Shown piece by piece: positions 1,368 to 63,866 of a DNA stretch of 64,000 nucleotides. The notes beneath the pieces were generated by a model, which saw only the letters and a list, made by a program, of their open reading frames with translations, ran no database searches and was not told where the DNA came from. The stretch covers positions 15,304 through 79,303 of the forward strand of contig JBIKWF010000008.1 of NCBI GenBank assembly GCA_044356455.1, read 5' to 3'. The stretch comes from Bdellovibrionota bacterium. Its GTDB lineage: Bacteria; Bdellovibrionota_C; UBA2361; JBGSMV01. Position numbers and translations under genes: made by a program. Position 1 is the first letter of the stretch, and every line of letters begins with the position of its first letter.

Positions 1368-1556
1368 CTAGGGAACCTCTGAAAAAGTCCCCCTTCGTGC
1401 TCTTCGCGTCCCCGGCTCCGCCAAAGCTGCGCCGCGGCCGCACTTAAGCCAGGCTCGGCGCAGACGGCTTCGCGTTAAACCCAAACATCACTAGCACACG
1501 ATATTTTAGGGAATAACGCGAAGGGGAAATTAAAACTTCTTCAGAGGCTCCCTAGA
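1368..1556. repeat. MITE-like dispersed repeat, copy A (subfamily with cgcgtcc...gcgttaaacccaaacat core)
   Basis: Left end is ctagggaacctctgaaaaag and the right end is its inverted copy cttcttcagaggctccctag. Intergenic. The termini are shared with 7 other copies. Confidence 0.7.
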
Positions 1557-1728
1557 AGACTTGAGAGGAACGCCGCTAGTTCCAGCGTAAGGGCTGGATA
1601 TCATCAACCCCATACAAATGTCATAAGTCGCCAGGTGCGCAGGAGTAGTAAGGGGCCCAGAATCCGGGTAGCATGTTATTCACAAGTGAATGTTCCACAG
1701 AAGCTTCTCCAAATATTTGCGGACGATT

Positions 1729-2286
1729 ATGAGAGCATTGTCGCGTTTGTATTCTTTTCTTCTCCTTGGATTACTTGCCTGTGTTTTCAATATCGACATC
1801 GCTGCGGGCGAACCCCTTAAACGCTACGACGGCAAAATGGTAAGTTTCTCTTATCCCGCTGGTTGGAAGATGAAGCCCGGATTCCTCAGCGGACTCGAGT
1901 ATAATATCATGATTGAGAATGACGAATCGGCGATACTTTTCATCACCTTTCATGACTATTCTGACAAAAAGATTCTCAAAGAGATCATTCGAGAGGATCA
2001 GATAAATACGCCAGAGACTCCGGTTTCGGAGACTGCCGGGACCTTGAGCGAGGTGCGCCGTTCGTTTGGGGGAAAGATATACTCAGGATTTCGTCGTGAA
2101 TATTCAGTAACTTTGTCAGGGGACATCTTCTCGATAAGTAAGTCCAAAATGCGAAAGGAGTACTTTTTGATCGACTGTAAGCCGCGCTCGGTTGAGGTCG
2201 CCGCGCAGGCTTCGGACGCGGAATGGCCCGAGCTTGATCGTGTCGTGGCAACGGTTGCAGATACTTTGGAATTACGATGCCGTTGA
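1729..2286 (+). CDS. hypothetical secreted protein
   Basis: ORF 1690-2286. The internal start MRALSRLYSFLLLGLLACVF reads as a signal peptide. No recognisable domain. Confidence 0.45.
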   Translation: MRALSRLYSFLLLGLLACVFNIDIAAGEPLKRYDGKMVSFSYPAGWKMKPGFLSGLEYNIMIENDESAILFITFHDYSDKKILKEIIREDQINTPETPVSETAGTLSEVRRSFGGKIYSGFRREYSVTLSGDIFSISKSKMRKEYFLIDCKPRSVEVAAQASDAEWPELDRVVATVADTLELRCR

Positions 2287-2570
2287 CGAGCACGGGTATC
2301 TGGTAAAAAATCTCTCGAAGGCATCGGTCTCTTTCCAGTTTCAAATAGGCCAATGAGCGTTTGGCCAGAGCTGCGGTTAACCAACTGTCGCCCCGCGGGA
2401 CTGTGCACGAAAGCTTCAGCGAGCGGTGAACTGAGAGCTCCTGTGCCCTATTAATCAAAATGCACCTGAAGGTCTTAGTCTCGGAGTCGCGATGAACGCC
2501 GTAATCGTGACAGGGTATAGATCGTATCTTATTTCTTGCATTTTAGTGCCCTGAACACTAAAATCCATAT

Positions 2571-3821
2571 ATGCAATATAACTATAGATATTTACAGCAT
2601 ATTCTAGCTCAGGCATCCCCCGATTTCCGGGTTCTCCTGATTACAGGCCCCCGGCGCGCCGGTAAAAGCACTTTCGCCAAGCACATCCAATCTTTATGGA
2701 ACGGAGGCAGCTACAACAGCTTCGATACCCCGCTTGAACAGGCGCGTTTTAACGCCGATCCCATTGGTTTCCTGCGCTCACTTGCCCTGCCCGCAATTCT
2801 TGATGAAGTGCAGAACGTGCCTGAGCTTTTCAACTACCTAAAGGCTGAAGTCGATCGTAATCCAGGCGCAGGCTGCCAGTATATTCTAACTGGCAGCCAG
2901 CAGTTTCAGGTGATGAGGAATGTTTCAGAAAGTCTAGCCGGACGAATTCAGATTAAAGAGCTACTCCCCTTTTCCGTCGGAGAGGCAAGGCGAAGCGATC
3001 CGGAACGAATACGCCGCAACCTGGAGACGCTCCTGGCGGGGCGCAGCGGCTTCGAAGTTCCAAAATCAGACCAGCCGGTTTTGATTCCTCAGCTGCTTGA
3101 AGTTGGCGGATTTCCACAATCAGTCCTAGCCTCGAGTGAGCAGTCTCGTTTCGAATGGTTTAGTGGATACATAGAAACCTATATTCAGCGGGATATTAGA
3201 TCGCTCAGCAATATTCAGAATCTCTCGGCGTTCTCTCGATTCGTATCGCTCATCGCGGGACGCACCGCACAACTGCTCAATCATTCTGAGATTGGGAAAG
3301 ATATTGGTATCAATTACAAAACGGCACAGCACTATCTCTCTCTTTTGGAGAGCTCATATCTCTGGCAACCGTTACTGCCATACTACAAAGCGGGCTCAGA
3401 GAAGCGACTCACTAAAAGCCCTAAAGGCATTCTGATCGATACGGGCGTTGCGATGTATATGACCGGATTGCGCAAAGAAGGGGTAATGCGAAACCCGATG
3501 TATGGCGCCTTGTTTGAATCGTTGGTGATCAGCGACCTCCTTAAGTTGTGTAAATCTTTTGGGCATCGAGTCGTTGCATGCCATTATCGTGCCACCGAGG
3601 CGGCTGAGGTCGATCTGGTTTTAGATCTTGGTTCTTCGATCGTTCCCATCGAGATCAAGGCCTCTGCATCACCTGATGCAAGTTGGACCAGAGGTATAAA
3701 GTCACTGCGCAAGGCGATGAGCCTACCCCCAGACTATCCAGGATTCGTGCTTTCACTCTTAGATGAAGTAAAGCCACTCGGGCCAGGGATCGTAAATGTT
3801 CCTTTTCAGGCTTTTGTCTAG
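2571..3821 (+). CDS. AAA+ ATPase with C-terminal DUF4143 (COG1373-type ATP-binding protein)
   Basis: N-terminal Walker A ITGPRRAGKST. The 416 aa architecture is typical of AAA_14/DUF4143 proteins. Confidence 0.75.
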   Translation: MQYNYRYLQHILAQASPDFRVLLITGPRRAGKSTFAKHIQSLWNGGSYNSFDTPLEQARFNADPIGFLRSLALPAILDEVQNVPELFNYLKAEVDRNPGAGCQYILTGSQQFQVMRNVSESLAGRIQIKELLPFSVGEARRSDPERIRRNLETLLAGRSGFEVPKSDQPVLIPQLLEVGGFPQSVLASSEQSRFEWFSGYIETYIQRDIRSLSNIQNLSAFSRFVSLIAGRTAQLLNHSEIGKDIGINYKTAQHYLSLLESSYLWQPLLPYYKAGSEKRLTKSPKGILIDTGVAMYMTGLRKEGVMRNPMYGALFESLVISDLLKLCKSFGHRVVACHYRATEAAEVDLVLDLGSSIVPIEIKASASPDASWTRGIKSLRKAMSLPPDYPGFVLSLLDEVKPLGPGIVNVPFQAFV

Positions 3822-4012
3822 AAGTGATTTCACAACGACTGTCTCAAGGGCGCTTAAAGTTCCGGAGCTTTCTGCGCGGTGTTCGAGTGTCATGTGTGAT
3901 CTAAGGCGCGAGTCTGTTAGGTTGTTATGCAGTACATTGTCACGCATAGGAAAGGACGGATAGACTTGTCTCGCGATTTGTCTTGTAGGTAAGTGGCACT
4001 ATTCCTTAGACT

Positions 4013-4786
4013 ATGGACACAACGGTGCTATCACTAATCCAAGTGTTTTTCTTTGGGAGATTTACCATGCGATATGGAACTACAAGGATGTTTACCTCGA
4101 AAGTGAACACCCCTGCGCCAATCTCCTTCGAATCGACTCTAGGCTCTTCACCTCAGTTAGTGAGCGGTAAACTTTTTGAGGGGTTAGGAGCGGGGCTTTT
4201 GAGGCAAGGCAAAAAGTGCGGCGCCAAAGAGTGCGGGGCAGGTGCACTCGTCCTTGTCATGGGCTGTATAACCATAGGCTCTCTCTTCCCCGTGGGAGTA
4301 TCTCTGAACTTCATGGGGCCACGTGAAGCCTTTGCAGCTTCAACCAAGGAGACAGTTTTCGTGCAGGTCCAAACAACTTCTCTTCGCTCAGGCCCTCAAG
4401 CTTGGGCTAAGTCCATTACCGAGCTGCGTTATGGGGACAGGCTTAGCCTTCTTGATTCCGTTTCTAAGGATCAATCAACAGGGGTTCCTGGTTGGTTAAA
4501 GGTTCAGAAGGGCGGCACACAAGGCTACGTTCATCTTTCTGCAATTACTTCTCGCACCGTAGTGATTCAAGGCAAGTCAGGCGGGACAGGCACTAACTTA
4601 AGTTCCGGAGATGTCGTGCTTGCAGGTAAGGGCTTCAATGCTGATGTAGAGCGCTCCTACTCAGGAAAGCGCTCGGGGAGCAATTTTGCGGAGGTCGATC
4701 GCATGGAGGCTCGCCGAGTCAGTAATGGCGAAGTTGCAAGCTTCATCTCAGCTGGTCGACTTGGACTTAAGGGAGGAAAGTCATGA
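4013..4786 (+). CDS. hypothetical protein with a bacterial SH3-like domain
   Basis: The segment VFVQVQTTSLRSGPQAWAKSITELRYGDRLSLLD...GWLKVQ resembles an SH3b fold. Its stop overlaps the next gene as ATGA. The exact start is uncertain. Confidence 0.45.
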   Translation: MDTTVLSLIQVFFFGRFTMRYGTTRMFTSKVNTPAPISFESTLGSSPQLVSGKLFEGLGAGLLRQGKKCGAKECGAGALVLVMGCITIGSLFPVGVSLNFMGPREAFAASTKETVFVQVQTTSLRSGPQAWAKSITELRYGDRLSLLDSVSKDQSTGVPGWLKVQKGGTQGYVHLSAITSRTVVIQGKSGGTGTNLSSGDVVLAGKGFNADVERSYSGKRSGSNFAEVDRMEARRVSNGEVASFISAGRLGLKGGKS

Positions 4787-5709
4787 AAATAAAAACACTT
4801 TCTGGGGCTTCCCTTCTTATTCTTTCCGCACTTGCAAACGCGGGGTGTGCCAATCAGAACTTTCGCGATATTACGTCAACGGTACTTGGTCAGACAGGAT
4901 ATGTATCGGCATCCCAAGCCGAGTCCTTGCTCAGGGCAGGAGAGGGAGTAGTTCAGGCTGCGACACCTCTTACTGAGGAGCAGGAATACTACCTCGGGCG
5001 AGGCGTGGCAGCGGCTATTTTGGGACGTTACAAGCCTCTGAAAAATGACGCAGTCCAGCGCTATGTAAACGTAGTTGGCCGCACGGTGGCGGCGTTTTCC
5101 GATCGGCCCGACACCTTCAAAGGATATCGATTCTTGGTTCTCGACTCCAATGAAGTAAACGCAATGGCAGCCCCCTCGGGTTTTATTTTCATCACGCGGG
5201 GTTTACTTCGTAATCTAAAGACTGAGGATGAACTTGCAGGAGTGCTTGCGCATGAAGTTGCGCATGTCGTGCATGCGGACGGTGTGAATGCAATTTCAAG
5301 CAGCAAGCTCACAAAGGCCGTGGCCTTAGTGGGTCAGGAAGTGCTTGCTTCCCAGGGGCCCGCAGAGCTTGCCGAAATAACAAACCTCTTTAGTGAGAGT
5401 GTGAATGAAGTCGTTGAGACTCTGGTCACGAACGGCTATTCGAGATCTCAGGAGTATGACGCTGACGAGTATGCTCGCGAGCTTTTGCTCCGCGCAGGGT
5501 ATGACCCTGATGCGCTCGCGCGCTCCCTTCAGACGCTTGAGAACGTGAGCGCCAGCGCGCAAGGTCTTGGCGGGTGGTATTCAACTCATCCTAGTCCCAA
5601 GAAACGTCGCGAGGAACTTGAAGAGGAAACTTCGAAGAGTCCCACGGCAAGCATTGGGCTGGGGACGCGAACTGCGCGCTTCAAGAATGGGGTTTCTGGT
5701 CTAAAATGA
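4783..5709 (+). CDS. M48 family Zn-metallopeptidase lipoprotein (BepA/YfgC-like)
   Basis: Signal peptide plus lipobox LANAGC. HEXXH motif HEVAHVVH. Confidence 0.8.
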   Translation: MKIKTLSGASLLILSALANAGCANQNFRDITSTVLGQTGYVSASQAESLLRAGEGVVQAATPLTEEQEYYLGRGVAAAILGRYKPLKNDAVQRYVNVVGRTVAAFSDRPDTFKGYRFLVLDSNEVNAMAAPSGFIFITRGLLRNLKTEDELAGVLAHEVAHVVHADGVNAISSSKLTKAVALVGQEVLASQGPAELAEITNLFSESVNEVVETLVTNGYSRSQEYDADEYARELLLRAGYDPDALARSLQTLENVSASAQGLGGWYSTHPSPKKRREELEEETSKSPTASIGLGTRTARFKNGVSGLK

Positions 5710-5761
5710 GTGATTGCTGGGCACGGAAACGGTAGATCGGTGGGTTGCCTCGCGTAGTAAC

Positions 5762-5909
5762 CTAGGGAACCTCTGAAAAAGTCAACCTTCGCGCTCTTCG
5801 CGTCCTTCGCGTTAAACCCAAACATTGCGGGTACGCGATATATTGCGAAATAACGCGAAGGACGCCGAGGACGCGAAGGGGAAGAAGAGGTTTTTCAAAG
5901 GCTCCTTAG
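5762..5909. repeat. MITE-like dispersed repeat, copy B
   Basis: Termini cctagggaacctctgaaaaag ... tttttcaaaggctccttag. The core cgcgctcttcgcgtccttcgcgttaaacccaaacat is shared with copy A. Confidence 0.7.
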
Positions 5910-5926
5910 CTAACCCGAAACAAGAT

Positions 5927-8053
5927 ATGGCCACGAAGGACACCCAAAGCTTTCGAGCAAGAGCCTTTGGGCTTACGGTTCTTATTGCGTCCTTGCTTGC
6001 CACCATAGTCACCCTATCGGGTTTCAAGGGTTTCGAAGAAATCGAGTACCGAACCTGGGATTGGCGCCTGGAGTTCATGGCAACGCCGCCGCGTGTGACT
6101 CCCCTTCGAATTATAACGATTGATCAGCCTTCCCTCGACTACTTAGCGCGGGAGGAGGGTCACGTCTGGCCCTGGCCCCGAGGGGTATATGAGGCAGTAC
6201 TGCAGTACTTGAAGAGCGCCGGTGCAAAAGCGGTAGCCTTTGATATCTTGCTTACTGAGCCGTCCTCTTACGGAGTCGATGACGATGATGCGTTAGGCGC
6301 CGCGGTGAAAGGAACTCTGCCCGTGGTAAGCGCTCTTACCATGACAGAGGCGCCCTCCGATGAAAGTGAAGAGGACCTTAAGCGCTACCAGGAAAAGCAA
6401 TCGCAGCGCGAAGAATTGCTGCGTCAGTTTAAGCTCCCTCCACGCGCTATCGTTCCCCTTCGTGGAGTAACCCTCCCCATCAGGCAGCTCATTGATAGCT
6501 CTGCCATGCTTGCTGACGTGAAGGGAGAGCCAGATAGCGACGGAAACTATAGGCATATTATTCCTGCTGCGTTTCTTACTTCGAATCCCGAATTAAAAGT
6601 GCTTCGCCTTCCCTTTGCGCTTTATTCTCTAGCCTTTCCGGGCACGCCAGTTGATTTTACCAAATGGGTAGACGCGGAAGGCAGGCTCACCATTCGCTAC
6701 GTTGGTCCTAAGGGAACTATTCCTACGGAGTCTTTTGCGAATGTGTACCTTAGCTGGCAGAATCTTATTGCCGAGACATCTCCTAAAGTGCCTCTCGCTA
6801 ATTTCAAAGATGCTGTAGTTCTTATCGGGATGGACGCACCGGGATTGCTCGATCTGCGACCCACTCCTCTTGCTCCCAATTTCCCCGGAGTGGAGCTCAA
6901 TGCCACGGTCATTCAAAATTTGCTGGATCACAGCTTCATAAGGAAGCCGGAGCGGCACTGGGTTTTGCTGGGAACTATTCTTGCCATAGGCCTCGTCGCT
7001 GCGGTGAGTCTTTTCCTTTCAGGGCCTACCCAAGTTCTCTCGATTATTCTTTTGTTCTCTGGCTATCTCTTTGCAAGCTTCGCTGCGGCTGAGGCGGGTT
7101 GGTGGATACCCTTTGTTACCCCCGCGCTTAGTATGGTGGGCACTTTGCTTGCGAGTCTCACGGTGCTGTATGTGGGGGAAGGTAGGCAGCGCCGGTTTTT
7201 AAAAGATGCATTTCGATTCTATGTAAGCCCGTCAATTATTGACCGCATTGTAGAGGACCCGCGCCAACTTGAGCTTGGAGGAGAGCGCCGAGAGCTTACG
7301 ATATTTTTCAGCGATATTGTGGGCTTCACCACCATCTCGGAAACACTCGAGGCGGGACAGCTTGTATCGATGCTTAACACGTATCTGTCGAACATCACCG
7401 AAATAATTCTGCGCTACGGGGGTACCGTCGATAAATATGTAGGTGACGCGGTAGTGGCATTTTGGAACGCCCCGCTTTCGCAGCCCGACCATGCGGAGCG
7501 TGCAGTAGGCGCCGCACTTGAAGTCCAAGCAGAGCTTCTTAGGCTCCAAGTAGTTTTTGAGCGAGATTATAAGGTCACGGTAAAGACACGCATTGGACTG
7601 AACACGGGCATGGTCAGCGTGGGCAATTTTGGCTCCTCTGTTAGATTTAGTTACACCGTGATTGGTGACGCTGCGAATCTTGCTTCTCGCTTAGAGGGGG
7701 CAAATAAGTATCTTGGGTCCTCGATTCTTATGTCGGGCCGTACTTTCAAAATGCTTGGGTCCGCGCAGCGTGCACGGAGCCTTGGAACAATTAAAGTAGT
7801 GGGGAAGACGCATGGGGTTCCAGTCTATGAGCCGCTCGGCGAATCTCATCCGCTAAGAACTCAGCCTGAAAAAATGCAAACGTATGAGGCCGCCAGAGTG
7901 CGGTTTGAGAGAGGGGAGTTTGATGAAGCGCGCGAGCTTTTTGAAAAGCTTCCTGAAGATTCGGTGAGTGCTGCCTATCTTAGGCGCATCGCGGTAGAGG
8001 GTGCTCGCAAGGGTTTAGATTGGTCTCCGGAATGGAATCTTACGGAAAAGTAG
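5927..8053 (+). CDS. CHASE2 sensor domain-containing adenylate/guanylate cyclase (class III)
   Basis: N-terminal TM segment and periplasmic CHASE2-like region, then further TM segments. The cyclase core shows FSDIVGFTTISE and GDAVVAFWNAP motifs. The track ORF starts at 5825, but that lies inside repeat B, so I take the in-frame ATG at 5927. Confidence 0.8.
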   Translation: MATKDTQSFRARAFGLTVLIASLLATIVTLSGFKGFEEIEYRTWDWRLEFMATPPRVTPLRIITIDQPSLDYLAREEGHVWPWPRGVYEAVLQYLKSAGAKAVAFDILLTEPSSYGVDDDDALGAAVKGTLPVVSALTMTEAPSDESEEDLKRYQEKQSQREELLRQFKLPPRAIVPLRGVTLPIRQLIDSSAMLADVKGEPDSDGNYRHIIPAAFLTSNPELKVLRLPFALYSLAFPGTPVDFTKWVDAEGRLTIRYVGPKGTIPTESFANVYLSWQNLIAETSPKVPLANFKDAVVLIGMDAPGLLDLRPTPLAPNFPGVELNATVIQNLLDHSFIRKPERHWVLLGTILAIGLVAAVSLFLSGPTQVLSIILLFSGYLFASFAAAEAGWWIPFVTPALSMVGTLLASLTVLYVGEGRQRRFLKDAFRFYVSPSIIDRIVEDPRQLELGGERRELTIFFSDIVGFTTISETLEAGQLVSMLNTYLSNITEIILRYGGTVDKYVGDAVVAFWNAPLSQPDHAERAVGAALEVQAELLRLQVVFERDYKVTVKTRIGLNTGMVSVGNFGSSVRFSYTVIGDAANLASRLEGANKYLGSSILMSGRTFKMLGSAQRARSLGTIKVVGKTHGVPVYEPLGESHPLRTQPEKMQTYEAARVRFERGEFDEARELFEKLPEDSVSAAYLRRIAVEGARKGLDWSPEWNLTEK

Positions 8054-8081
8054 TAGTCATCTATTGCCGCCCGCAGGAGCC

Positions 8082-8687
8082 TCATGCCTTCATCAACTTA
8101 GCCGGCGCAAATTCCTTTAAGAGCTGAGGAATCTCGAGTTTCAATTCCACGAGGTTGTGCCTTACATAGTCCAGATCGAGATCCGTCACATTTCCAAAAA
8201 TCTCTTTGAGATCGTCAAGGTCTTGAAACCGATCAGGCGCGTTGCTCAGCGCGTAGCACTTTGCCAAAATGAGGTCTTCTGGCGTGATCACCGGGACGAC
8301 TTTGAACCCCAAATCAATCTTATTATGCTGTGCGCGCTCTACCGCTTGAGGCAGCCACGGCAATTCAGGCAGTAAAATATCAATTATTCCCTTACTCTCA
8401 TGAAGGGGCGGGCGGGAGGTTACCATGCAAACGGCTTTTCGGGCTTTCTCCTTGGGGCCGGCAGGAATAAATCCCAACATCGGTGTGAGCCCTATCTCTT
8501 GTATTACCTTTTCAGCTAACGCACGAGAATCTGAAAGCGGCTCCGCGATTAACGCAAAGTCAACGTCGCTTGTGACGCGCGCCTGGGAGCGATAGAGGCT
8601 CGCGGCGTGGCCACCAATCAGACAATATTTGCAGCCCAGCCTTTCAAATGCTGCTACCGCTTGCCGGAGTGTTTTAAGTGGGGTCAC
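8082..8687 (-). CDS. Pol-beta superfamily nucleotidyltransferase (candidate toxin of an AbiE/MNT-like pair)
   Basis: The motif LIGGHAASLY...SDVDFAL matches the G[GS]-x-n-DxD signature of minimal nucleotidyltransferases. It overlaps the upstream winged-helix gene by 14 bp. Confidence 0.55.
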   Translation of the reverse strand: MTPLKTLRQAVAAFERLGCKYCLIGGHAASLYRSQARVTSDVDFALIAEPLSDSRALAEKVIQEIGLTPMLGFIPAGPKEKARKAVCMVTSRPPLHESKGIIDILLPELPWLPQAVERAQHNKIDLGFKVVPVITPEDLILAKCYALSNAPDRFQDLDDLKEIFGNVTDLDLDYVRHNLVELKLEIPQLLKEFAPAKLMKA

Positions 8688-9087: not shown

Positions 9088-9222
9088 TTATTCAAGGAGG
9101 TTAGGCGAGGTGAGGGGTGAGGAAGTGAATTATGTTAAATGATTGCAGCGGGTTATGGCATCTTCTGAACGTGCAGATGGGTAGAGGACGCAAACGGCCT
9201 GCTTTGAGTGTCAGGTGCTGTG

Positions 9223-10974: not shown

Positions 10975-11171
10975 AGGAAATACCCGCGTATGTTAATCCA
11001 GCCGCGTAGGCTAAGCAGCATCCTGATTAGAAAAAATGAAAATGAATTGCGACGCAGCCTTGGACGCCACGAATAATTTCATGGGTTTGATTGCAGGATT
11101 GAGTTTAAAGACAGCTTTTAAGTTGAAATCTGCTCTGAACGTTGAAGATCCTCTAACTATTCGATCGTAGG

Positions 11172-12758: not shown

Positions 12759-12948
12759 AGTGCCTCAAGAAAATTATCAATGCGCATCGGAGAACACGCC
12801 TGTTTATTCACCTCTTAAGAGTCGCCGGGCGAGGATTCCGTTGCTCTCAATGTCGCCGATAAAAAAATACGTGATTCTCATTGCTTAGCCTGCGTTTTTC
12901 GCAGCGCTACTGGCCAAAATCGATTGGCTTTTAAAAACGGAGGTATTT

Positions 12949-13084
12949 TAGGGAGCCTCTGAAAAACTGACCTCTGTGTACCTCTGAGTCTCTGTGGTGA
13001 AATTTTCATGAAGAAATTCACCAGAGACGACACGGAGGTACACAGAGGTGTATTAAGACTGAAGGCTTTCGGAGGTTCCCTAGA
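12949..13084. repeat. MITE-like dispersed repeat, copy C (subfamily with ctctgtgtacctc...gaggtacacagag palindromic core)
   Basis: Termini tagggagcctctgaaaaactg ... ctttcggaggttccctag. The right terminus supplies the TAG stop of hipA. Confidence 0.7.
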
Positions 13085-14303: not shown

Positions 14304-14324
14304 CGAAGCGAGGCTCCTTGAGAG

Positions 14325-19784: not shown

Positions 19785-19787
19785 GAG

Positions 19788-27070: not shown

Positions 27071-27206
27071 CCTGGAAACCTCTGCAAAAGCTCCATTCCA
27101 AATACACCTCTGTGTACCTTCGTGTCCTCTGTAGTGAATTGCTTGATAAAATTTCACCACAGAGGACGCAGAGGTACACAGCGGTGAGTTTTCAGAGTTT
27201 CCCTAG
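27071..27206. repeat. MITE-like dispersed repeat, copy D (degenerate left terminus)
   Basis: Left end ccctggaaacctctgcaaaag and right end gagttttcagagtttccctag. The core cacctctgtgtacct...gaggtacacag is shared with copy C. Confidence 0.6.
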
Positions 27207-53508: not shown

Positions 53509-53725
53509 CTAGGGAGCCTGAAAAACTGCCCCTCCGCGTACTCTGTGTCCTCCGCGTTATTTGAGAACTATTGAACAACGCGGAGCCGTCTACGCCTTAC
53601 GGCTGCGCCGAACCTGGCTTCAGTGTGGCCGCGGCGCAGGCTTAGCGGAGCCGAGTACGCAGAGTACGCGGAGGGAAAACAGGACAAAAAAAGTTCCTTT
53701 TCTAGGTTTTTCAAAGGTTCCCTAG
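53509..53725. repeat. MITE-like dispersed repeat, copy E (longest copy, GC-rich cgcggag core)
   Basis: Termini ctagggagcctgaaaaactg ... tttttcaaaggttccctag. Confidence 0.65.
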
Positions 53726-53848
53726 GCCAAAGAGCCAGTTGAATCCTCGCAGGAATCCAGGTCTGAATTCAGTAAGGAAGCTTCGCGATTGAGTATCTCC
53801 CGCCCATTCGACAACATATGACTCGTTATCAAGCCAAGGTCGAGTCAT

Positions 53849-55129: not shown

Positions 55130-55131
55130 GG

Positions 55132-55869
55132 ATGTGTATGATGATCTCTCGACTCTGTATCCAACTGCGACGAGGACTTGTCGCTATGGTCCTGATCGCA
55201 CTTGCCGGATGTGGACCAGACCCCAAAGATCCCGTGTATTCAAATTACGAGTCTGCCCTGCGTGCAGGTGCAGAGCAACGCCGCCTCTGTGTCAACCTTG
55301 CTCGCCACTCGCTTGTTGGAAGGGTTCGGCAGGCGATTACAGAACCTGTAGTGGAGCTCGCGAGTTCGCGCTGGGGTTCGTGGGAGGAACTAGTAGCGGC
55401 TGGGATGTACCGCAAGGAGGAGGTGCGGGAGAATTACGACTATAGGATATCATACGATCAGGGCCTGAGAATTCCTGTGCTCGGCTACCGCTACACACTT
55501 ACTGAACCGTACAAGAAATTTGTTGGAACTTCAGACTCCGTTTTCTCTGATAGCAATCAGAGCCTCTGCCTTGCTAGCTACGAGTTTGACAAAGTCGTCT
55601 CCGCCACCGAGCCGCGTATAGTTTTTGGCGGTCTTACCGCCGTTTCGGTAACTTACTCGCTTGCGCTCGGCAGCCTACCCGATGAATTTGCACAGTCACG
55701 GACGACGATGGAGAAGTACTTCCCTGAGGTTTTCAAGGAGGTCTCTTCCAAGACTGAAGATGCCACTCTCCTTTTGACGAAGGAAGGCTGGAAGCTCCAG
55801 AAGATGATTAAAGACCCCACTGAATTGATACGGGCAACACACGCTACGCGTAATGGTGAAGAGGAGTAA
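55132..55869 (+). CDS. hypothetical lipoprotein
   Basis: Lipobox ALAGCGP. Confidence 0.4.
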   Translation: MCMMISRLCIQLRRGLVAMVLIALAGCGPDPKDPVYSNYESALRAGAEQRRLCVNLARHSLVGRVRQAITEPVVELASSRWGSWEELVAAGMYRKEEVRENYDYRISYDQGLRIPVLGYRYTLTEPYKKFVGTSDSVFSDSNQSLCLASYEFDKVVSATEPRIVFGGLTAVSVTYSLALGSLPDEFAQSRTTMEKYFPEVFKEVSSKTEDATLLLTKEGWKLQKMIKDPTELIRATHATRNGEEE

Positions 55870-56530
55870 GGAGTATCCTATGATTGCACGTTCAGAACTT
55901 TTTGGCCCGGCCCTTGCTTTTGTGGTGATGGTGTTTTCAGTTGGATGCGCCCCTGTCAGCCGAAATTCCTTTAGTGCATCATCCGCAGAATGTTCGAGGA
56001 ATTTCTCCTCTTCTGGGAATATGCTTATCGGACAACAATTTCGAACCGATGCCACCGTGCAAGGGGCCAGGGCAAGAGAGGTACTTGAGCGTTTAAGGAC
56101 CCGCATGAAGCACGAGGGCTATCTGCTTGTTGAAATGAACCTCGAAGATGGCGTCTTACAAGGGCGCTCAAGGACAACCTCGGGATCCTACACAGAGCCT
56201 GTAGTGATTGGAGCCGAGCAGGACGGGAAAGATGTGCTCGTTACTATGAGCGCCTCCACTCTCGCTGGTCAGTATACGCCCGAAAGTGCTGCTCACGAGG
56301 AATTCTGTAAGTTCGTTACGGAGGCACAGAAACTTGCCTATAGTTATAAAGAGCCAGAGAGAAGAGTAATCGAAGCGCGAAGCTCGGCTCCCGTAAAGAA
56401 GGCAAAGGTACGTGCCGTGGTCGATTCGCCTAAGGCAGGGAGCTCGCTGGCTGCAAAGAAACCAGCGTCAAATGCCGAAACGAAAAAACCTGAGCCGCAA
56501 GCCGATGAAAGCACCAAGAGCCGTTACTGA
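55853..56530 (+). CDS. hypothetical lipoprotein
   Basis: Lipobox-like FSVGCAP. Low-complexity Lys-rich C-terminus. Confidence 0.4.
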   Translation: MVKRSKEYPMIARSELFGPALAFVVMVFSVGCAPVSRNSFSASSAECSRNFSSSGNMLIGQQFRTDATVQGARAREVLERLRTRMKHEGYLLVEMNLEDGVLQGRSRTTSGSYTEPVVIGAEQDGKDVLVTMSASTLAGQYTPESAAHEEFCKFVTEAQKLAYSYKEPERRVIEARSSAPVKKAKVRAVVDSPKAGSSLAAKKPASNAETKKPEPQADESTKSRY

Positions 56531-56547
56531 TTTCCTGATTTGAGTTC

Positions 56548-58035
56548 TCACGCGGAGCCACCATTTGACGTGTCTCCATCCTTAAGCACAAAACGCGCTG
56601 AAAGCATGGCGACGGTGCGAGCGAGTTTAGCTTTCTCAACAGAAGCGAGCACCTCCGCGAAAGGTTTATACGCCTGAGGCGCTTCATCCAGAGGATATCT
56701 CCGGCAGTTACTGAGAATGTCTGCCCTGTCTAGCTGCGCATCAACCTCTCCCTGGATAAGTTCACGCTGCGCTCTTGAGCGGCTCATGGCACGCCCAGCC
56801 CCATGGTTGACGCTGTAACAACTGAGCGCCGCACCAGGCTCTGCAACCATGACCGCGGAGCCAGCGGCGGGATTTCCAGGAAGCAAAATGGGGTGGCCAC
56901 TCGCTTCGTAGCGTGTTCCCTCAAGTCCGGGATGTCCTGCGGGGAATGCTCTCGTTGCTCCTTTGCGATGAACCCACGTGGGCTCTCCTTCAACGATCTC
57001 CTTGCGCGCAATATTATGGCTAATGAAATAAACCAAGTCGCCCGAAAGCCCAGGGAAAATTTCCTGAAATGCCTCAAGAACAAGAGCATTAATGAGCAAG
57101 TGATTGAGCGTCGCAAAGTTTGCGCCGAGCGCAAGGTCATCTAAATAGCAATCGGCCTCACTCGTTCCAAGAGGAGCATACACGAGCTCACGATCGCCGC
57201 CCGGGAAAGGAATTCCGCTTGCCGCGAATTTACCCTGGAGTGTCTTAAATTGCTGTTGTGCGAGGAGGTACCCAAAGCCGCGCGAGCCGCAATGCGAAAG
57301 AAAAGCGATTTTACCGTCGCTGAGACCAAAGCTCTTGGCGATAGCTTCTTCGCCGCGAGTAACCCTCACGGTATTGGCTTCACCAAAGTGATTTCCACCA
57401 CCGTAGGAACCTAGCTGCTGAATCTTTGATTCAAGCACGTCACTTCCCCAGGAACCTTCGACCAGCTCAAGACGCTTGCCAAGAGACTGAGAAGTTCCGT
57501 CATTTCCGAAATGTCGCGAGTCCTCACACGCATCCGTCCATGCGAAGGGAATACCCAACGCAGAGCATACTTCGGCTGAGGCGCCTTCGATGGCAAGTCT
57601 GCGTCCCGTGGCCAAATCCACATGCCGTGCTTTCCTCACAGAACGCTGCCCTTTGCCGGAGCCGGTAGGAAGGCGCTGCATGAGAGCGTTTATCACTGCG
57701 CGCCTCGCTTCTTTGCTGAGAAGTTCCTCTTCGGGAAGATTCGTCTGAAGAAGGCTCATCGAGCATTTGATGTCTACGCCCACGGGAGCTGGATAGATAT
57801 GTGTCGGCGAGGTGAGGACGCTGCCGACAGGCGCTCCGTATCCCGCGTGTGCATCAGGATTGAGGACTACCTTGGTGACCCCGGGAGCAAGTCGGCTATT
57901 TATGGCTTGCTGCAGGCACTTTTCGTCGAAGGAGGTGCGAATACTCTCGGTGCCAATGACCGTAATGGGAGTCACCGAAGAGTCAGGAACGGGGAGAATT
58001 CCCACCGCTTCTTCAACTGGAATTACCTTATTCAT
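56548..58035 (-). CDS. rtcB: RNA 3'-phosphate ligase RtcB
   Basis: Motifs PDAHAGYG, HNI/HCGSRG and C-terminal NHGAGR. 495 aa. Confidence 0.9.
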   Translation of the reverse strand: MNKVIPVEEAVGILPVPDSSVTPITVIGTESIRTSFDEKCLQQAINSRLAPGVTKVVLNPDAHAGYGAPVGSVLTSPTHIYPAPVGVDIKCSMSLLQTNLPEEELLSKEARRAVINALMQRLPTGSGKGQRSVRKARHVDLATGRRLAIEGASAEVCSALGIPFAWTDACEDSRHFGNDGTSQSLGKRLELVEGSWGSDVLESKIQQLGSYGGGNHFGEANTVRVTRGEEAIAKSFGLSDGKIAFLSHCGSRGFGYLLAQQQFKTLQGKFAASGIPFPGGDRELVYAPLGTSEADCYLDDLALGANFATLNHLLINALVLEAFQEIFPGLSGDLVYFISHNIARKEIVEGEPTWVHRKGATRAFPAGHPGLEGTRYEASGHPILLPGNPAAGSAVMVAEPGAALSCYSVNHGAGRAMSRSRAQRELIQGEVDAQLDRADILSNCRRYPLDEAPQAYKPFAEVLASVEKAKLARTVAMLSARFVLKDGDTSNGGSA

Positions 58036-58147
58036 AGAACGTCTCTCTTAATTTTTACTTACTGTTTAAATCTCCCAATTCTTCCCGTGGAAGCAATAAA
58101 AAAGCTGCATTTCTCCAGGAATGACTTGCGCATCAGAGCAGCGAGAA

Positions 58148-58300
58148 CTAGGGAATCCCTGAAAACATAGCTATTTTATTCTGTTCTCTCTGTGAGCTCT
58201 GTGTCCTCTGTGGTTTTTCAACAATTTAAATCAACCACAGAGGGCGCAGAGTTCACAGAGAGAAGAAATGAAGTATCGCGGTCTTTCAGAGGTTCCCTAG
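58148..58300. repeat. MITE-like dispersed repeat, copy F (subfamily with ctctgtggtt...aaccacagagg palindromic core)
   Basis: Termini ctagggaatccctgaaaacatag ... ctttcagaggttccctag. It lies inside the operon between the SPFH gene and rtcB. Confidence 0.7.
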
Positions 58301-58363
58301 AGGCGTGCCCCCCCCGGCCGGTGCGGAGTGTGTGCGCTCATGGCACACACTCCGGGTTCCGAA

Positions 58364-59485
58364 TTACTTCGTGAGAGAAACGAGGCCTTTCATGACTCCG
58401 TCAAGTCCATCGTAGACCGTAAGCTTCCCTACCTTCTCACTAATACGCTCGACCGCCTCAAGCTCCTTTAACCTAAGGAGCACGGGATTATTCTCCATCA
58501 TCCTCGCGGTATTCATAAGCGAACGCGTGGCGGCGGTCTCTTCGCGCCGGCGAATATTCTGAGCCTGGGCAGCCTTTTCAGCTTCAACTACCTGGTTCAG
58601 GAGTGCGCGCATTTCACCGGGAAGGATGAGATCCTTAACCCCGATACGCACGATCTCGATTCCGCACACCTCCATCGCAGCCTTAATCTCGGAAGCAAGA
58701 ACTCTATTAAGAAGCTCCTTGTTCTCAAGCAACTCATCCAGAGTCTTCTCTCCCACGGCCTGCCGAAGTGCGAGCTGGGCGCAGCGATAAATCTCGCCCA
58801 GTATATCGCTTAGCGCGCGTGTTGCCTTGACCGCGTCTACCAAACGATAACTCACGCTCAAGTTCACCCGAAGAGATACCTTGTCCTTTGTGAGCATCTC
58901 CTGTCCGCTTACCTCAAGTGCAGTCAAGCGAGTATCTAGAATGCTCACAGACAAATCGCGCTGGGCGCGCCAGAATGCGTAGTGCCCAGGTGCGAGTTCA
59001 CGGACAATCACTCCCGATTCGAGCAGCAATCCCCTACATTGCTCAGGAACGCTCACACGCAGAATCTTGGGATCCGCCGCCAAACCAGACAAATTGCGCA
59101 CCGTCTCGCGGTCCAGCTCATACCCCTCCGAGATCTCGAACCTTTTGACGTTGATCTCAGCAAGCCCTTTCCAAAAGAGACGCTCTTCGCTCGGCATCAC
59201 AAGACAAGAAGCTTGCGAATTGAGGTACACCACGGCCACTTCACGAGGCCCTGTTTCAACCTTAACCAAGAACTCTGCAAGCTCAGAGGTGAAGCGATTC
59301 GCAAGCAGCTGGGCAATGGGCCCACGAAGCTCTACCTCCTTAGCGATATCGGAAATCGCAACGGCGACCTTACAAAGGGGGTTTAAGAATCGGTAGCTTC
59401 CAGGGGCAAGGATGCGTTCAAAGCGCTTATCTTTATAAAGAATCCCACGTTCGGTGCTTCCAATAACAATCTTTTTCATATTCAC
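58364..59485 (-). CDS. SPFH/band-7 (slipin-like) protein with about 170-aa N-terminal extension, co-transcribed with rtcB
   Basis: SPFH core LTKDKVSLRVNLSVSYRLVD...GIEIVRIGVKDLILPGEM...EAEKAAQAQ. RBS AGGAG 8 nt upstream of the ATG. Confidence 0.8.
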   Translation of the reverse strand: MNMKKIVIGSTERGILYKDKRFERILAPGSYRFLNPLCKVAVAISDIAKEVELRGPIAQLLANRFTSELAEFLVKVETGPREVAVVYLNSQASCLVMPSEERLFWKGLAEINVKRFEISEGYELDRETVRNLSGLAADPKILRVSVPEQCRGLLLESGVIVRELAPGHYAFWRAQRDLSVSILDTRLTALEVSGQEMLTKDKVSLRVNLSVSYRLVDAVKATRALSDILGEIYRCAQLALRQAVGEKTLDELLENKELLNRVLASEIKAAMEVCGIEIVRIGVKDLILPGEMRALLNQVVEAEKAAQAQNIRRREETAATRSLMNTARMMENNPVLLRLKELEAVERISEKVGKLTVYDGLDGVMKGLVSLTK

Positions 59486-59700
59486 ATCTCCTTAGCTCAA
59501 CTACACATTCAAAAAGGGAGGAGACCTCCTCACGAAAACAGCGCGGGGCTTGAGCGTGTCATCGGGGGGTGCTTCGATGTCCACACCATCGAAGCGCCGC
59601 AGAACGAGGCACCACTTCTCAAAACTACAAGGCGCTGCCCGCGCCAAGGCTTGCGCCTTGCTTGGGAATCTCCTCTGTTACAGTGAGAGCTTTCGCTCTC

Positions 59701-59772
59701 AGGACATAGGCAGGAGTCGAACCTGCTACACATCGATTAACACTCGATTGCTCTACCCATGAGCTACTATGG
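59701..59772 (-). ncRNA. tRNA-Asn(GUU)-like cloverleaf element, possibly a pseudo-tRNA or Y-RNA/tRNA-like regulatory RNA
   Basis: Hand fold of the minus strand. D-arm GCTC-ATGGGTA-GAGC. Anticodon stem ATCGA/TCGAT with loop GTGTTAA (anticodon GTT). T-arm GCAGG-TTCGACT-CCTGC. The acceptor stem pairs at only 5 of 7 positions (1:72 and 2:71 mismatched), and there is no encoded CCA. Confidence 0.5.
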
Positions 59773-59887
59773 TGACCGGTCCTCTTCGACGCGGTACGCG
59801 GCTGAGACTAGATTAGTTATCCAACTCTGCTGCGCCGCCCGGCCTTGCTGAAGCCAGTCGTCCAGTGAACAGTCGAAGCTATATAGA

Positions 59888-59903
59888 GCATCAAATGTGC
59901 CAC
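59888..59903 (-). promoter_or_regulatory. sigma-54 (-24/-12) promoter for the tRNA-like element, SPFH gene and rtcB
   Basis: Minus strand reads TGGCAC-ATTTG-ATGC with exact GG/GC spacing. It lies about 100 bp from the divergent rtcR start, as expected for an RtcR-dependent promoter. Confidence 0.55.
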
Positions 59904-59952
59904 GGCTTAATATGCTGAAATATTTAGCTTTATATTGAGTAGAGCGGCCCGC

Positions 59953-59981
59953 TTACATATCTATTGAGATAGTTCTATAAT
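59953..59981 (+). promoter_or_regulatory. candidate sigma-70 promoter of rtcR (leaderless or near-leaderless)
   Basis: TTACAT-N17-TATAAT. The -10 box ends 7 nt before the rtcR ATG at 59989. Confidence 0.35.
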
Positions 59982-59988
59982 TAAAGAT

Positions 59989-61596
59989 ATGAATCGAGTT
60001 GCCTTTGGCTTTTTAGGAACCAAGCTTGATGCCTTTGGGGGCTTTGGCGAGAAGCGCTTAAAAACCTGGCGTCCTTCGGTGGCGCTGGGCCTCGACCAGG
60101 CTCTTGGGCTTAGCCGGTTTGAGCTCTGGTACAATGAGCGCTTCGCGCGGGTTGCCAAGCTCGTTAAAGACGACATCGAAGAACAGCGAGTAGGAATTCA
60201 GGTGATTCTGCGCGAGGCATCTATTCGCGACCCATGGAATTTTGAGGAGGTGTACAGCTTTCTTTTTGATTTTAGTACGAGCTACCCCTTCAAAACCGAG
60301 AGCGAAGAATACTTCATACATCTCACCACCGGTACGCATGTCGCGCAAATCTGTCTCTTTCTTTTAACTGAGTCGCGGCATTTTCCTGGAAAGCTTGTTC
60401 AAACGAATCCACGAGGCAAGCAGACCGAAGAAGAATTGAGCATCATCGACCTTGACCTCTCCAACTATGACAAACTTGCAAGACGCTTTGAGCAGAAACG
60501 AGGAGCCGACCTAGAACTCCTTAAAGCGGGAATCAAAACTCTCAGTGCCTCATTCAATTCATTAATTTCTGAAATTGAAGTAGTAGCGCGTGCAAGTAGC
60601 GATCCGCTATTGCTTCTCGGACCCACGGGAGCGGGAAAGTCAAAGCTCGCCCAGCAGATCTATCTTCTCAAGCAATCCCAGCACCGCGTTCAGGGAGAAT
60701 TTGTAGATGTGAATTGCGCGACCATACGGGGAGAACAAGCCATGTCTGCCCTTTTTGGACATGCCAAGGGGGCTTTTACGGGAGCCATTGGTAAACGCGA
60801 TGGGTTATTAAAAAAGGCGCATAAAGGCCTGCTCTTTCTGGACGAGATCGGCGAACTCGGTCTTGACGAGCAAGCGATGCTTCTTCGAGCAATAGAAGAG
60901 AAACGGTTTTTCCCCCTCGGGAGCGACCAGGAGGAGCGTAGCGATTTCCAGCTCATTTCGGGAACTAATCGCGACCTTAACGAGAGAGTCAGCGCCGGGC
61001 TATTTCGAGAGGACCTTTTGCGGCGTATTGATATTTGGAGCTTTGAACTTCCGGCACTTAGAGACCGTAAGGAGGATATAGAGCCGAATCTTGAATTCGA
61101 GCTAAAAAAATTCGAGGAACGTTCAGGTCGTCGAATTACCTTTAGCAGTGAGGCAAAGAAAGCATTTCTTAGCTTTGCCACAGGTCCTCTCGCTCTTTGG
61201 CCTGGAAACTTTCGCGACTTAAACGCCTCGGTGACTCGAATGGCTACACTTGCTCCTCAAGGGCGAATTAGTATGGAAGTCGTGGAAGTTGAGACTCAAA
61301 GACTTACTCGGGCATGGCGCTATCCGCAGAAAGCCGAATCCGCTCTTGGAGAAGTGGAATCAATTATTCGCTTGGCAGGACTTTCTCCTGAGCTTGTCGA
61401 TCCCTTTGACAGGCCACAGCTTGCTGCGGTGCTGCAGGCGCTTGCCCGTGCTCGTTCAATTGCAGAGGCCGGACGTGAGCTTTTTGCAGTTTCGCGGAGG
61501 GAACGTTCAGTGGTTAATGACTCTGACAGGCTCAGGAAATACCTAAACCGATTTGGAATAGATGCGAGGCGGATTGTGGGGACCAATACTCGTTAA
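59989..61596 (+). CDS. rtcR: sigma-54-dependent transcriptional activator RtcR (CARF-AAA+-HTH)
   Basis: 535 aa. Walker A GPTGAGKS and sigma-54-contact motif GHAKGAFTGA. An N-terminal non-receiver, CARF-like domain. Divergent from the rtcB operon. Confidence 0.85.
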   Translation: MNRVAFGFLGTKLDAFGGFGEKRLKTWRPSVALGLDQALGLSRFELWYNERFARVAKLVKDDIEEQRVGIQVILREASIRDPWNFEEVYSFLFDFSTSYPFKTESEEYFIHLTTGTHVAQICLFLLTESRHFPGKLVQTNPRGKQTEEELSIIDLDLSNYDKLARRFEQKRGADLELLKAGIKTLSASFNSLISEIEVVARASSDPLLLLGPTGAGKSKLAQQIYLLKQSQHRVQGEFVDVNCATIRGEQAMSALFGHAKGAFTGAIGKRDGLLKKAHKGLLFLDEIGELGLDEQAMLLRAIEEKRFFPLGSDQEERSDFQLISGTNRDLNERVSAGLFREDLLRRIDIWSFELPALRDRKEDIEPNLEFELKKFEERSGRRITFSSEAKKAFLSFATGPLALWPGNFRDLNASVTRMATLAPQGRISMEVVEVETQRLTRAWRYPQKAESALGEVESIIRLAGLSPELVDPFDRPQLAAVLQALARARSIAEAGRELFAVSRRERSVVNDSDRLRKYLNRFGIDARRIVGTNTR

Positions 61597-61638
61597 CTTC
61601 GATATCGCACATGTGAACCTGTAAGTGCTTGAAGCCAC

Positions 61639-61804
61639 CCTAGGTTTCTGCGTCGCAGAAACCTAGGGCGGCTCTAAAAAACTTTAATATTCTATTTTCT
61701 CTCTCTGTGAACTCTGTGCCCTCTGTGGTTGATTTAAATTATTGAAAAACCACAGAGGACACAGAGAAAAAATAATATATCGAGGTTTTTCAGAAGTTCC
61801 TTAG
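61639..61804. repeat. MITE-like dispersed repeat, copy G
   Basis: Starts with the perfect palindrome cctaggtttctgcgtcgcagaaacctagg, then ctagggcggctctaaaaaac ... tttttcagaagttccttag. The right terminus contains the ABC-F stop codon. Confidence 0.65.
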
Positions 61805-63672
61805 GAGAATTCAGACTCAGATGAAGTCAGCTTCGAGGACAAGTCCTCTAGCGTCTCAAACAGCTCATCTATGCGCTTTTTCGCTGCGGCAGTCTCTCGT
61901 GATAGCTCGGCCATTTTAAAGACATCTGTCTTGGCTCCTTGAGAGGCGGAGGCTGCTTCTGCCATCAGTGTTTCGTTTCGCTTAATGGACTCCTCAAGGG
62001 TAACAATTTGCTTCTCAACCGAAGCAATTTCCTTCTCGAGTGGGCCAATAACTTTCGAGCGATCCTGGCGCTGCTTGGCGCGATCTTTTCTATCAAGATT
62101 TGAGCTCTTGGCGGGGGCAGGCGCCGGGGCAGCAGGCTTGCTGCTTGAAGAAGAAGACGGGGTGTCGTCCCCATCTCCCCACCCACCACGAGAGAGGAAA
62201 TAGTCGTAATTACCTTCCAGGATATTTACGCCTTCATCCGAGAAGACAATCAGGCGCGTAGCTAACTTGCGCAGCATAAACTCGTCATGCGTGACAAGCA
62301 TGACTGCGCCTTCGTACTGGGCGAGGCTGTCTACGAGAGCCGCGATGGACTCTAGGTCGAGATGGTTTGTCGGTTCGTCGAGCAGCAAAAGGTTCGAGGG
62401 CTGTGCAATCAGCTTGCCCAATAGAACCCTGCTTTTTTCTCCTCCCGAAAGGACAGATATTTTTTTCTCGCCATCATCTCCCGTGAACATCATCGTGCCG
62501 CAAATTGAGCGTACCCTCGTGCGGTGCATATTGTGGTTTGTGGAGGCTATCTCTTCCTCAACCGTTAAGTTCTTTGACAGGCGCTGAATATTCGTCTGCC
62601 CGAAATAGCCAATCTTTGTATGAGGAGAGCTACGAATTTCACCCGAGGTGAGTTTCAGTTCACTTGCGAGCAGTCTAAGAAGTGTAGATTTACCCTTTCC
62701 GTTCTTTCCAATAACACCGATTCGATCGCCAGGGCGCACGACAACCGTGAAGTCTTTGATGATTTCCGTTGGCGTGGATTTCGAAGGCGTGGGGGGGAAG
62801 GAGAATGAGCCATTCTCAAGTTCAATTAAACTTTTTCCAAAGAAGGGGATTCCTGTAAAATTGAAATCAAGCACAGGAACTTCAATGAGCTCTTCTGGCA
62901 CTTCCATCTTCTCGAGCATCTTCATGCGCGATTGAGCAAGGCTCGCGGTTCCTGCCTTGGCCTTAAACTTGTTGACGAACTGCTCAACCTCTTTGCGCTT
63001 CTTTTCTTGATTGAGACGTGTTTGCTCGTGAATGGTCTCCTCTTCAGCGAGTAAATCGTAGAGTTTCTGTGTTCGTCCCTGCACCCGGCGCGCCTTGCCG
63101 CGGTGAATAATCATGGTGTGAGTAGAAACCGCATCGAGAAAGGCGCGGTCATGGGAGATCATGATAAGTTCGCCTTCCCAGTCGCAGAGGAATCGCTCAA
63201 GCCAACGCGCAGAAACGATATCAAGGTAGTTGGTCGGCTCATCGAGCAACAAGAGGTTTGGCTCGGAGAGCAGAACGCGGGCGAGCTCAAGCCGGATCTG
63301 GAATCCTCCCGAAAAGCTCGAGGCGGGCCGCTCAAAATCCTCAATCGAAAAGCCCAAGCCGCTCAGAATAATTTCGGCTTTATACTCCTCATCCATGCGG
63401 TCCGGAGGAAGGCCAAGGCAAGCTTCACGGAGAATCGTTGGCTGGTTGAATTCTAGATGCTGGGACAAATGTCCTACGCGGTAGCCTTTAGGAAGTATTA
63501 CTTCCCCTTCGTCGGGATGGTCTTCTTCAAGGATGAGTTTAAACAGGGTTGATTTGCCAGTTCCATTACGGCCTACGAGCGCAAGACGCTCCCCGGGGGT
63601 GAGGGAGAACGAAACGCCCTTGAAGAGGGTCCTATCTCCATACGATTTTTCAACGTTTATAACTTGCAGCAC
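61801..63672 (-). CDS. ABC-F family ATPase (Uup/EttA-like translation factor)
   Basis: Two ABC ATPase domains (GRNGTGKST, GKNGKGKST, LSGG signatures). An inter-domain linker and a C-terminal coiled coil. Confidence 0.9.
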   Translation of the reverse strand: MLQVINVEKSYGDRTLFKGVSFSLTPGERLALVGRNGTGKSTLFKLILEEDHPDEGEVILPKGYRVGHLSQHLEFNQPTILREACLGLPPDRMDEEYKAEIILSGLGFSIEDFERPASSFSGGFQIRLELARVLLSEPNLLLLDEPTNYLDIVSARWLERFLCDWEGELIMISHDRAFLDAVSTHTMIIHRGKARRVQGRTQKLYDLLAEEETIHEQTRLNQEKKRKEVEQFVNKFKAKAGTASLAQSRMKMLEKMEVPEELIEVPVLDFNFTGIPFFGKSLIELENGSFSFPPTPSKSTPTEIIKDFTVVVRPGDRIGVIGKNGKGKSTLLRLLASELKLTSGEIRSSPHTKIGYFGQTNIQRLSKNLTVEEEIASTNHNMHRTRVRSICGTMMFTGDDGEKKISVLSGGEKSRVLLGKLIAQPSNLLLLDEPTNHLDLESIAALVDSLAQYEGAVMLVTHDEFMLRKLATRLIVFSDEGVNILEGNYDYFLSRGGWGDGDDTPSSSSSSKPAAPAPAPAKSSNLDRKDRAKQRQDRSKVIGPLEKEIASVEKQIVTLEESIKRNETLMAEAASASQGAKTDVFKMAELSRETAAAKKRIDELFETLEDLSSKLTSSESEFS

Positions 63673-63770
63673 AGCGTAGGGTCCCTTTCGGATGTCAGTT
63701 TTGGGGCCCTATAGTGCCAGAGTTGAGCTGTTTTGAATAGCGTTGCAGGATTATGCCCCTTTATTAGTGG

Positions 63771-63866
63771 CCTCTGTGGTTGATTTAAATTATGGAAAAC
63801 CATAGAGGACACAGAGTTCACAGAGAGAAAAGAATAAAATATCGAGGTTTTTCAGGGAGTCCCTAG
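63771..63866. repeat. MITE-like dispersed repeat, copy H (5'-truncated)
   Basis: Core cctctgtggttgatttaaattatggaaaaccatagaggacacagag and right terminus tttttcagggagtccctag. No left terminus is present. Confidence 0.55.

Follow-up and report, generated by a model that had tools for sequence, protein, structure and literature searches.

What are the eight short palindromic repeats scattered through a 64-kb stretch of DNA from an uncultured Bdellovibrionota bacterium, and how might they have come to lie where they do? The stretch (contig JBIKWF010000008.1, positions 15,304–79,303; all 64,000 nucleotides are called the window below) had been described in a first-pass annotation as holding a family similar to MITEs (transposable elements that are miniature and bounded by inverted repeats), thought to be either recently active or an RNA-structure element of the REP/BIME kind. 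We put at about 90 per cent the probability that the repeats are non-autonomous MITEs of an insertion sequence (IS) of the IS5 family, IS5 group, that inserts at a 4-bp YTAR target. Long elements with the same ends and the same flanks in other bacteria encode IS5-family transposases, and the assignment of the copies to the IS5 group is based on this.

Copies in the window

The 19-mer CTAGGGAACCTCTGAAAAA, searched on two strands with up to three mismatches, gave 12 matches in the window where 0.03 were expected from dinucleotide-preserving shuffles. All of them fell, paired head to head, at the eight places already noted, which confirms eight copies with the termini first described; a profile built from the copies (nhmmer) found no ninth in the window. 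The copies are non-coding and 96–217 bp long (136–217 bp for the complete ones). The eight places were given correctly at the outset, but three sets of coordinates change: c1 ends at 1555, c3 occupies 12948–13083, and the left boundary of c7 is 61663 (CTAGGGCGGCTCTAAAAAA) and not 61639. The core types named in the following list are set out under Core architecture.

1368..1555: MITE copy c1, 188 bp including CTAG/CTAG flanks; type A core (CTTCGYG units), right arm lacking two units
5762..5909: MITE copy c2, 148 bp; flanks CTAG/TTAG; type A core, three CTTCGCG units on each arm
12948..13083: MITE copy c3, 136 bp; flanks TTAG/CTAG; type B core
27071..27206: MITE copy c4, 136 bp; type B core; left terminal inverted repeat degenerate (4 mismatches), right flank CTAG
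53509..53725: MITE copy c5, 217 bp; flanks CTAG/CTAG; hybrid core; degenerate left terminal inverted repeat with a 2-bp deletion
58148..58300: MITE copy c6, 153 bp; flanks CTAG/CTAG; type C core, three CTCTGTG units per arm
61663..61804: MITE copy c7, 142 bp; flanks CTAG/TTAG; type C core, one arm lacking one unit
63771..63866: MITE copy c8, 96 bp; left-truncated half element with type C core, keeping only the right terminal inverted repeat and its CTAG flank

All eight are intergenic, as had been claimed, though the right flanks of c3 and c7 hold the stop codons of genes. Repetition of this kind, and nothing more, might also be expected of a segmental duplication or an assembly artefact. Similarity in a self-BLAST of the window, however, stops at the element boundaries, the flanks are unique and the neighbouring genes are all different, which refutes a segmental duplication; an artefact is opposed by separate assemblies, made from other samples, that contain this sequence together with its copies. 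We give this explanation next to no credence. Three short-read contigs of SRR11646531 correspond to window positions 58231–61729, 55102–58195 and 1459–5822, and five of their six ends lie inside MITE copies, as expected because a multi-copy repeat breaks short-read assembly.

Ends and target duplication

The conserved 19-bp terminus resolves into a 4-bp flank followed by a 15-bp terminal inverted repeat (TIR), GGAACCTCTGAAAAA. Conservation is lost sharply after position 19 across 94 ends from the window and, among the matches listed, other genomes, and each of the seven complete copies has the 15-bp TIR at its two ends, with 0–4 mismatches. Four of the 19 bp belong to a target duplication and not to the TIR. 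The flank is mostly CTAG and sometimes TTAG or CTAA, with the general form YTAR, and the suspicion that the CTAG end marks a target preference proved right: these flanks are the 4-bp duplicated target. A 4-bp YTAR duplication is an established property of the IS5 group. Reading the CTAG ends as an IS5-type YTAR target also explains the landing places of the copies.

Within the window the duplication can be read at three of the seven complete copies (CTAG/CTAG), is mismatched at three (CTAG on one side, TTAG on the other) and is degenerate at one. Over a wider sample of 60 paired elements, drawn from the window and from loci fetched among the matches listed, identical 4-mers stand on both sides in 31, and these include two CTAA/CTAA and two TTAG/TTAG pairs. 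Such pairs show that the duplication is 4 bp long and not 2 bp.

CTAG with duplication of TA is the classical target of IS630. MITEs of the IS630/Tc1-mariner type, beginning GGGAACC and inserted in CTAG with duplication of the central TA only, could formally account for every complete copy, each of which can be read as C-TA-[GGGAACC...GGTTCCC]-TA-G. This reading is opposed by the outer bases of the 4-mers, which vary together on the two sides (TTAG/TTAG, CTAA/CTAA), and by the scanned full-length elements with identical ends, which encode IS5-family transposases (DDE_Tnp_1, NF033581). In addition, MITEPsy1, a described MITE with near-identical ends, duplicates 4 nt (PMC3189936). An IS630 origin is accordingly very improbable.

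Full-length elements with the same ends

A scan with CTAGGGARCCTYTGAAA, using one genome per species, returned at least 108 loci. Given that about 280 matches would be expected by chance in 596 Gb, single matches carry little weight, but chance does not give paired inverted TIRs. A second, inverted TIR lies 60–2500 bp away at 48 of 108 loci among the matches listed, to which the counts in the next two sentences also refer. Most paired elements are short (65–600 bp) and have very diverse cores, and ten measure 1158–1192 bp. All ten of the long elements have YTAG on both sides (CTAG, with TTAG at two ends).

The two long elements whose open reading frames were scanned (L007 and L017) encode proteins of 319–326 aa that match the NCBIfam model NF033581, ‘IS5 family transposase’, at 320–324 bits (cutoff 140), together with Pfam DDE_Tnp_1 and DUF772. 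Transposases from Cellvibrio and an acidobacterium are only 46 per cent identical and have retained the same ends, which implies that this IS5 clade has had the TIR for a long time. The transposases that accompany these ends are 56–57 per cent identical to ISKpn26 and IS2000-type proteins. The ends of IS2000, read directly, are CTAG|GGATTCTCCGAACAAG...CTAG, and those of an IS on the Marinobacter plasmid pMAQU02 are TTAG|GGAGACTCTGAATAAG...TTAG. The same 15-bp end flanks MITEs in Proteobacteria, Bdellovibrionales, Acidobacteria, Patescibacteria, cyanobacteria and Chloroflexi; the exact-TIR scan had no matches in viral contigs. One very widespread IS5 clade therefore seeds many unrelated MITE families, a point of use to those who build repeat libraries.

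A distinct MITE family with the same ends was also seen among these loci. It has a constant length of 146–149 bp and a common core (GCGGAGTTTA...TAAATGAGCA), and it was seen in the genomes of Cellvibrio, Pseudomonas, Marinobacter and betaproteobacteria (L006, L012, L021, L022, L033, L051, L061, L070, L092, L096 and L098). In Cellvibrio, the subterminal bases of this family (AAATTACCT) agree with those at the left end of the IS from that genus (L007).

On sequence grounds, then, the window family appears to be mobilised, or to have been mobilised once, by a YTAR-targeting IS5-group transposase. A DDE transposase from a full-length IS of about 1.16–1.19 kb, elsewhere in the genome or formerly present, would bind both TIRs in trans and synapse them, and insertion at YTAR through a 4-bp staggered cut would leave the target duplicated. 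The subfamilies of the window and its one hybrid copy would have amplified from different palindromic master copies. We infer all three points: the mobilisation in trans, the way in which the DNA is cut and how the subfamilies arose.

Several observations weigh against the IS5-group assignment. In three of the seven complete copies the two flanks disagree at one base, so the duplication is imperfect in the window itself. No IS5-type transposase was found in the 64-kb window by tblastn; full-length partners with the same ends, for which the first-pass annotation had proposed a search, do exist, but the matching ISs were found in other genomes only. Beyond the first 20–25 bp or so the cores are unlike the full-length IS ends examined, and a simple internal deletion is therefore not shown. 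Finally, no clean empty site was found, the nearest relatives compared being too diverged or non-syntenic.

The proposal that this is a MITE-type non-autonomous element nevertheless holds: the copies are dispersed and small, within the range of about 50–800 bp usual for prokaryotic MITEs, their TIRs reach the 10–15 bp expected as a minimum, and they have a target duplication and carry no transposase. The accompanying proposal of recent activity is not supported, given diverged arms and TIRs, the mismatched flanks, the truncation of c8 and a window devoid of transposase. Units have also been lost from c1 and c7.

Core architecture

Between its TIRs each element has a core of about 100–180 bp. 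Over its whole length each complete copy forms an imperfect palindrome, with an arm-to-arm identity of 70–87 per cent, and folds on either strand into one long hairpin (z of −6 to −13 against mononucleotide shuffles). Alignments reveal a common design of three units of about 9 bp per arm, each a heptamer CTYYGYG plus 2 nt. The units are CTTCGCG in type A (c1, c2) and CTCTGTG in types B (c3, c4) and C (c6, c7, c8), while c5 is a hybrid whose arms both read CTCCGCG-CTCTGTG-CTCCGCG in the same order. Three core variants had been distinguished originally; these are not unrelated cores but subfamilies of a single design, and c5 falls outside all three.

The units change in step on the two arms, and it is worth asking whether the hairpin itself has been maintained. 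RNAalifold on the eight-copy alignment returned only 12 pairs with the arms misaligned, and an arm-by-arm comparison was used instead. By that comparison, arms are about 80 per cent identical within one copy and 64 per cent identical between different copies. Between different copies of one subfamily, however, arm identity is 0.84–0.94, against 0.68–0.91 within a copy. Because the arms are as alike between copies of a subfamily as within a copy, the concerted pattern is attributed to amplification from palindromic masters. Compensatory evolution of the hairpin copy by copy was considered and rejected, since co-variation of the arms follows the subfamily and not the individual copy.

Two copies carry a nested GC-rich insert:

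1412..1468: GC-rich palindromic insert in c1, 57 bp; in the left arm between units 2 and 3; missing from c2
53586..53653: GC-rich insert in c5, 68 bp; in the same relative place as the c1 insert

The two inserts (GCTGCGCCG...CGGCGCAG) are 88 per cent identical over the 51 bp they share and lie in opposite orientation. Neither the window nor the 1.75 Mb of loci that were fetched yielded a further copy. Comparable GC-rich insertions of 30–65 bp occur inside 148-bp MITEs elsewhere (L058, L067, L096).

Hairpins of this kind, in elements that are all intergenic and fold from end to end on both strands, are what would be expected of REP/BIME/REPIN- or ERIC-like structural elements, spread by RAYT proteins or kept for a hairpin function in RNA or DNA, and the folding of the cores that had been suggested as a check does yield long hairpins. 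The TIRs and target duplications, on the other hand, are identical to those of IS5-group ISs, and the copies are 136–217 bp long against 20–40 bp for a REP. No copy was called terminator-like or promoter-like, and no RAYT-like gene was seen near the copies, though no search was aimed at RAYT. Rfam, consulted to exclude known families, matches none of the copies: at gathering scores the window scan returned a tRNA-Asn only, and permissive scans returned only sub-threshold eukaryotic miRNA-precursor hairpins. The idea of a REP/BIME-like RNA element, raised as an alternative from the start, is thus not borne out, and we regard it as highly unlikely.

Insertion sites and gene ends

Some of the YTAR sites at which the copies lie are gene ends. 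The right flank of c3 (13080–13083) holds the TAG stop of a hipA-like toxin kinase gene (13080–14303, minus strand; Pfam HipA_C and Couple_hipA), and the right flank of c7 holds the TAA stop of an ABC-F gene (61801–63672, minus strand). Upstream of rtcB, 113 nt from its start codon and where its promoter would be expected, lies copy c6. No long plus-strand gene ends upstream of c1; the adjacent gene, on the minus strand, is divergent and encodes an ABC transporter.

The association with stop codons extends to other genomes. The statistic was computed over the window and the loci fetched among the matches listed, for open frames of at least 100 codons whose stop lies within the duplicated target. 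Such a stop is abutted by 49 of 163 element ends (30 per cent), compared with 4.5 per cent of YTAR sites and 8.1 per cent of CTAG sites, although the excess must be partly survivorship through the loss of gene-disrupting insertions, a share for which the 30 per cent is uncorrected. The target holds TAG or TAA on both strands, so that many insertions hit a stop codon without damage to the gene. CTAG is itself under-represented in the window (88 sites against 138 expected).

It could be supposed that these are MITEs by origin whose triple-unit core selection now preserves for some host function, as a structured 3′-end RNA that stabilises or ends transcripts or as a phased protein-binding array. 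The persistence of the three-unit architecture, with units changing in step on both arms (CTTCGCG, CTCTGTG, CTCCGCG), is consistent with this, as is the excess of ends at stop codons. The arm co-variation is, however, explained by palindromic masters, the stop-codon figure includes the loss of gene-disrupting insertions, and the copies lie in either orientation, some of them in 5′ regions, with no T-tract directly past the stems and no terminator calls. A selected core seems unlikely, if less so than the other alternatives. If it were true, then together with the targeting of YTAR and stop codons it would make these MITEs systematic gene-end appendages that affect the fate of transcripts across several phyla.

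Whatever their function, the elements have practical consequences: they break short-read assemblies, create false starts and occupy stop codons and promoter regions. The called start of a CHASE2/guanylate-cyclase gene (5825–8053) lies inside c2 (TTG at 5825; 5843 in the JGI annotation), and an ATG at 5928, outside c2, is the more plausible start.

The rtc locus around c6 has an unusual spacing. In the order listed below, c6 (58148..58300) falls between the Band_7 gene and rtcB:

59989..61596, plus strand: rtcR
59702..59773, minus strand: tRNA-Asn
58364..59485, minus strand: Band_7 gene
56548..58035, minus strand: rtcB

Just after the rtcR stop, between two CTAGs and abutting the left end of c7, is a small hairpin at 61640–61666 (GTTTCTGCG-TC-GCAGAAAC). 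It is separate from the MITE proper and could be a footprint, a terminator stem or a chance structure. At the far end of the window, an Rfam match to group-II-D1D4-4 (63905–64000, plus strand) scores 30.4 bits, below the gathering score of 49 (E = 0.001), and is cut by the window end; GTGCG at 63880 stands 14 nt past the c8 flank, and 63880–64000 is a possible 5′ end of a group II intron.

Related genomes and site occupancy

One comparison was with a related contig, L194, whose ABC-F gene is 77 per cent identical to that of the window at the DNA level. L194 has no element after the ABC-F stop, but the sequence at that stop reads ATAA instead of YTAR, and a different gene follows downstream. 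The ABC-F protein ends at the same residue in L194 and in the window organism, and c7 therefore sits on the native stop codon. A decayed element in L194 ends 98 nt upstream of ABC-F, as c8 does at 99 nt, with an alignment too poor to call a shared insertion.

L194 also has a type B copy with TTAG/TTAG flanks that is 85–89 per cent identical to c3 and c4. Directly after it, at 5155–5175, is a second partial end (TTAG|GGAACCTCCGCAC), which suggests a tandem or repeated insertion at the same YTAR.

Further afield, a metagenome scan with RtcR for empty sites returned relatives of at most 57 per cent identity. A Bdellovibrionales metagenome-assembled genome has many such ends at contig breaks and a core remnant of the CACAGAG type. 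The named distant ABC-F homologues belong to Oligoflexia or Deltaproteobacteria.

Comparison with known systems

The current understanding of transposition is unchanged by these results. Three features still stand out a little: the palindromic core with its three units per arm, the insert nested in both c1 and c5, and how broad the parent IS clade is.

Among the systems with which the window family might be confused, the REP/BIME/REPIN, ERIC and Correia elements are likewise short, intergenic, palindromic and multi-copy. REPs, which are GC-rich palindromes found singly or as inverted doublets, differ in being much shorter, in lacking a TIR and a target duplication, and in their dependence on RAYT, and the termini of ERIC and Correia elements are different sequences. 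IS630-derived MITEs resemble the window copies in their CTAG-associated ends, small size and non-autonomy, and differ in transposase family and in the length of the duplication.

The IS5-group ISs (IS5 of E. coli, ISKpn26, IS2000) share with the window copies the 4-bp YTAR duplication and the pattern GGA..TC.GAA.AAG at the ends, which was read directly in IS2000 and in the element from Marinobacter. The exact TIR differs, that of IS5 being GGAAGGTGCGAATAAG, and these ISs are autonomous elements of 1.2 kb with a transposase gene, which the window copies are without.

The exact TIR string was not found in the literature searched, where it gave only two irrelevant eukaryotic primer matches. The family had been called previously unnoted; as a new kind of element it is not, since its ends are those of the IS5 group and a similar, mobile MITE has been described. 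That element, MITEPsy1, comes from Pseudomonas syringae pv. phaseolicola (Bardaji et al. 2011, PMC3189936); it measures 100 nt and ends in the TIRs GGAAGGTCTGAAAAAGCC and GTATCCTCTGAAAAAGCC. It encodes no protein, relies on an IS5-family transposase acting in trans, is attributed to the IS5-family ISPsy2, and duplicates 4 nt at a CTAG or YTAA target; it was trapped while transposing into sacB, and MITEPsy1-like sequences were already noted in P. stutzeri, strain HdN1, Marinobacter and Klebsiella (PMC3189936).

The two families differ in length (100 nt against 136–217 bp for the complete copies here), in host (Pseudomonas against an uncultured bacterium) and in that mobility has been shown for MITEPsy1 and not for the window family. 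The window cores are long near-perfect palindromes with three units of about 9 bp per arm. In the comparison with MITEPsy1, made from the printed TIRs, the window end GGAACCTCTGAAAAAGTC matches either end of MITEPsy1 at 15 of 18 positions. Both families also have a 4-nt duplication, a CTAG-type target and no coding capacity, and on these sequence features MITEPsy1 and its presumed parent ISPsy2 appear to be the closest described relative of the Bdellovibrionota repeats.

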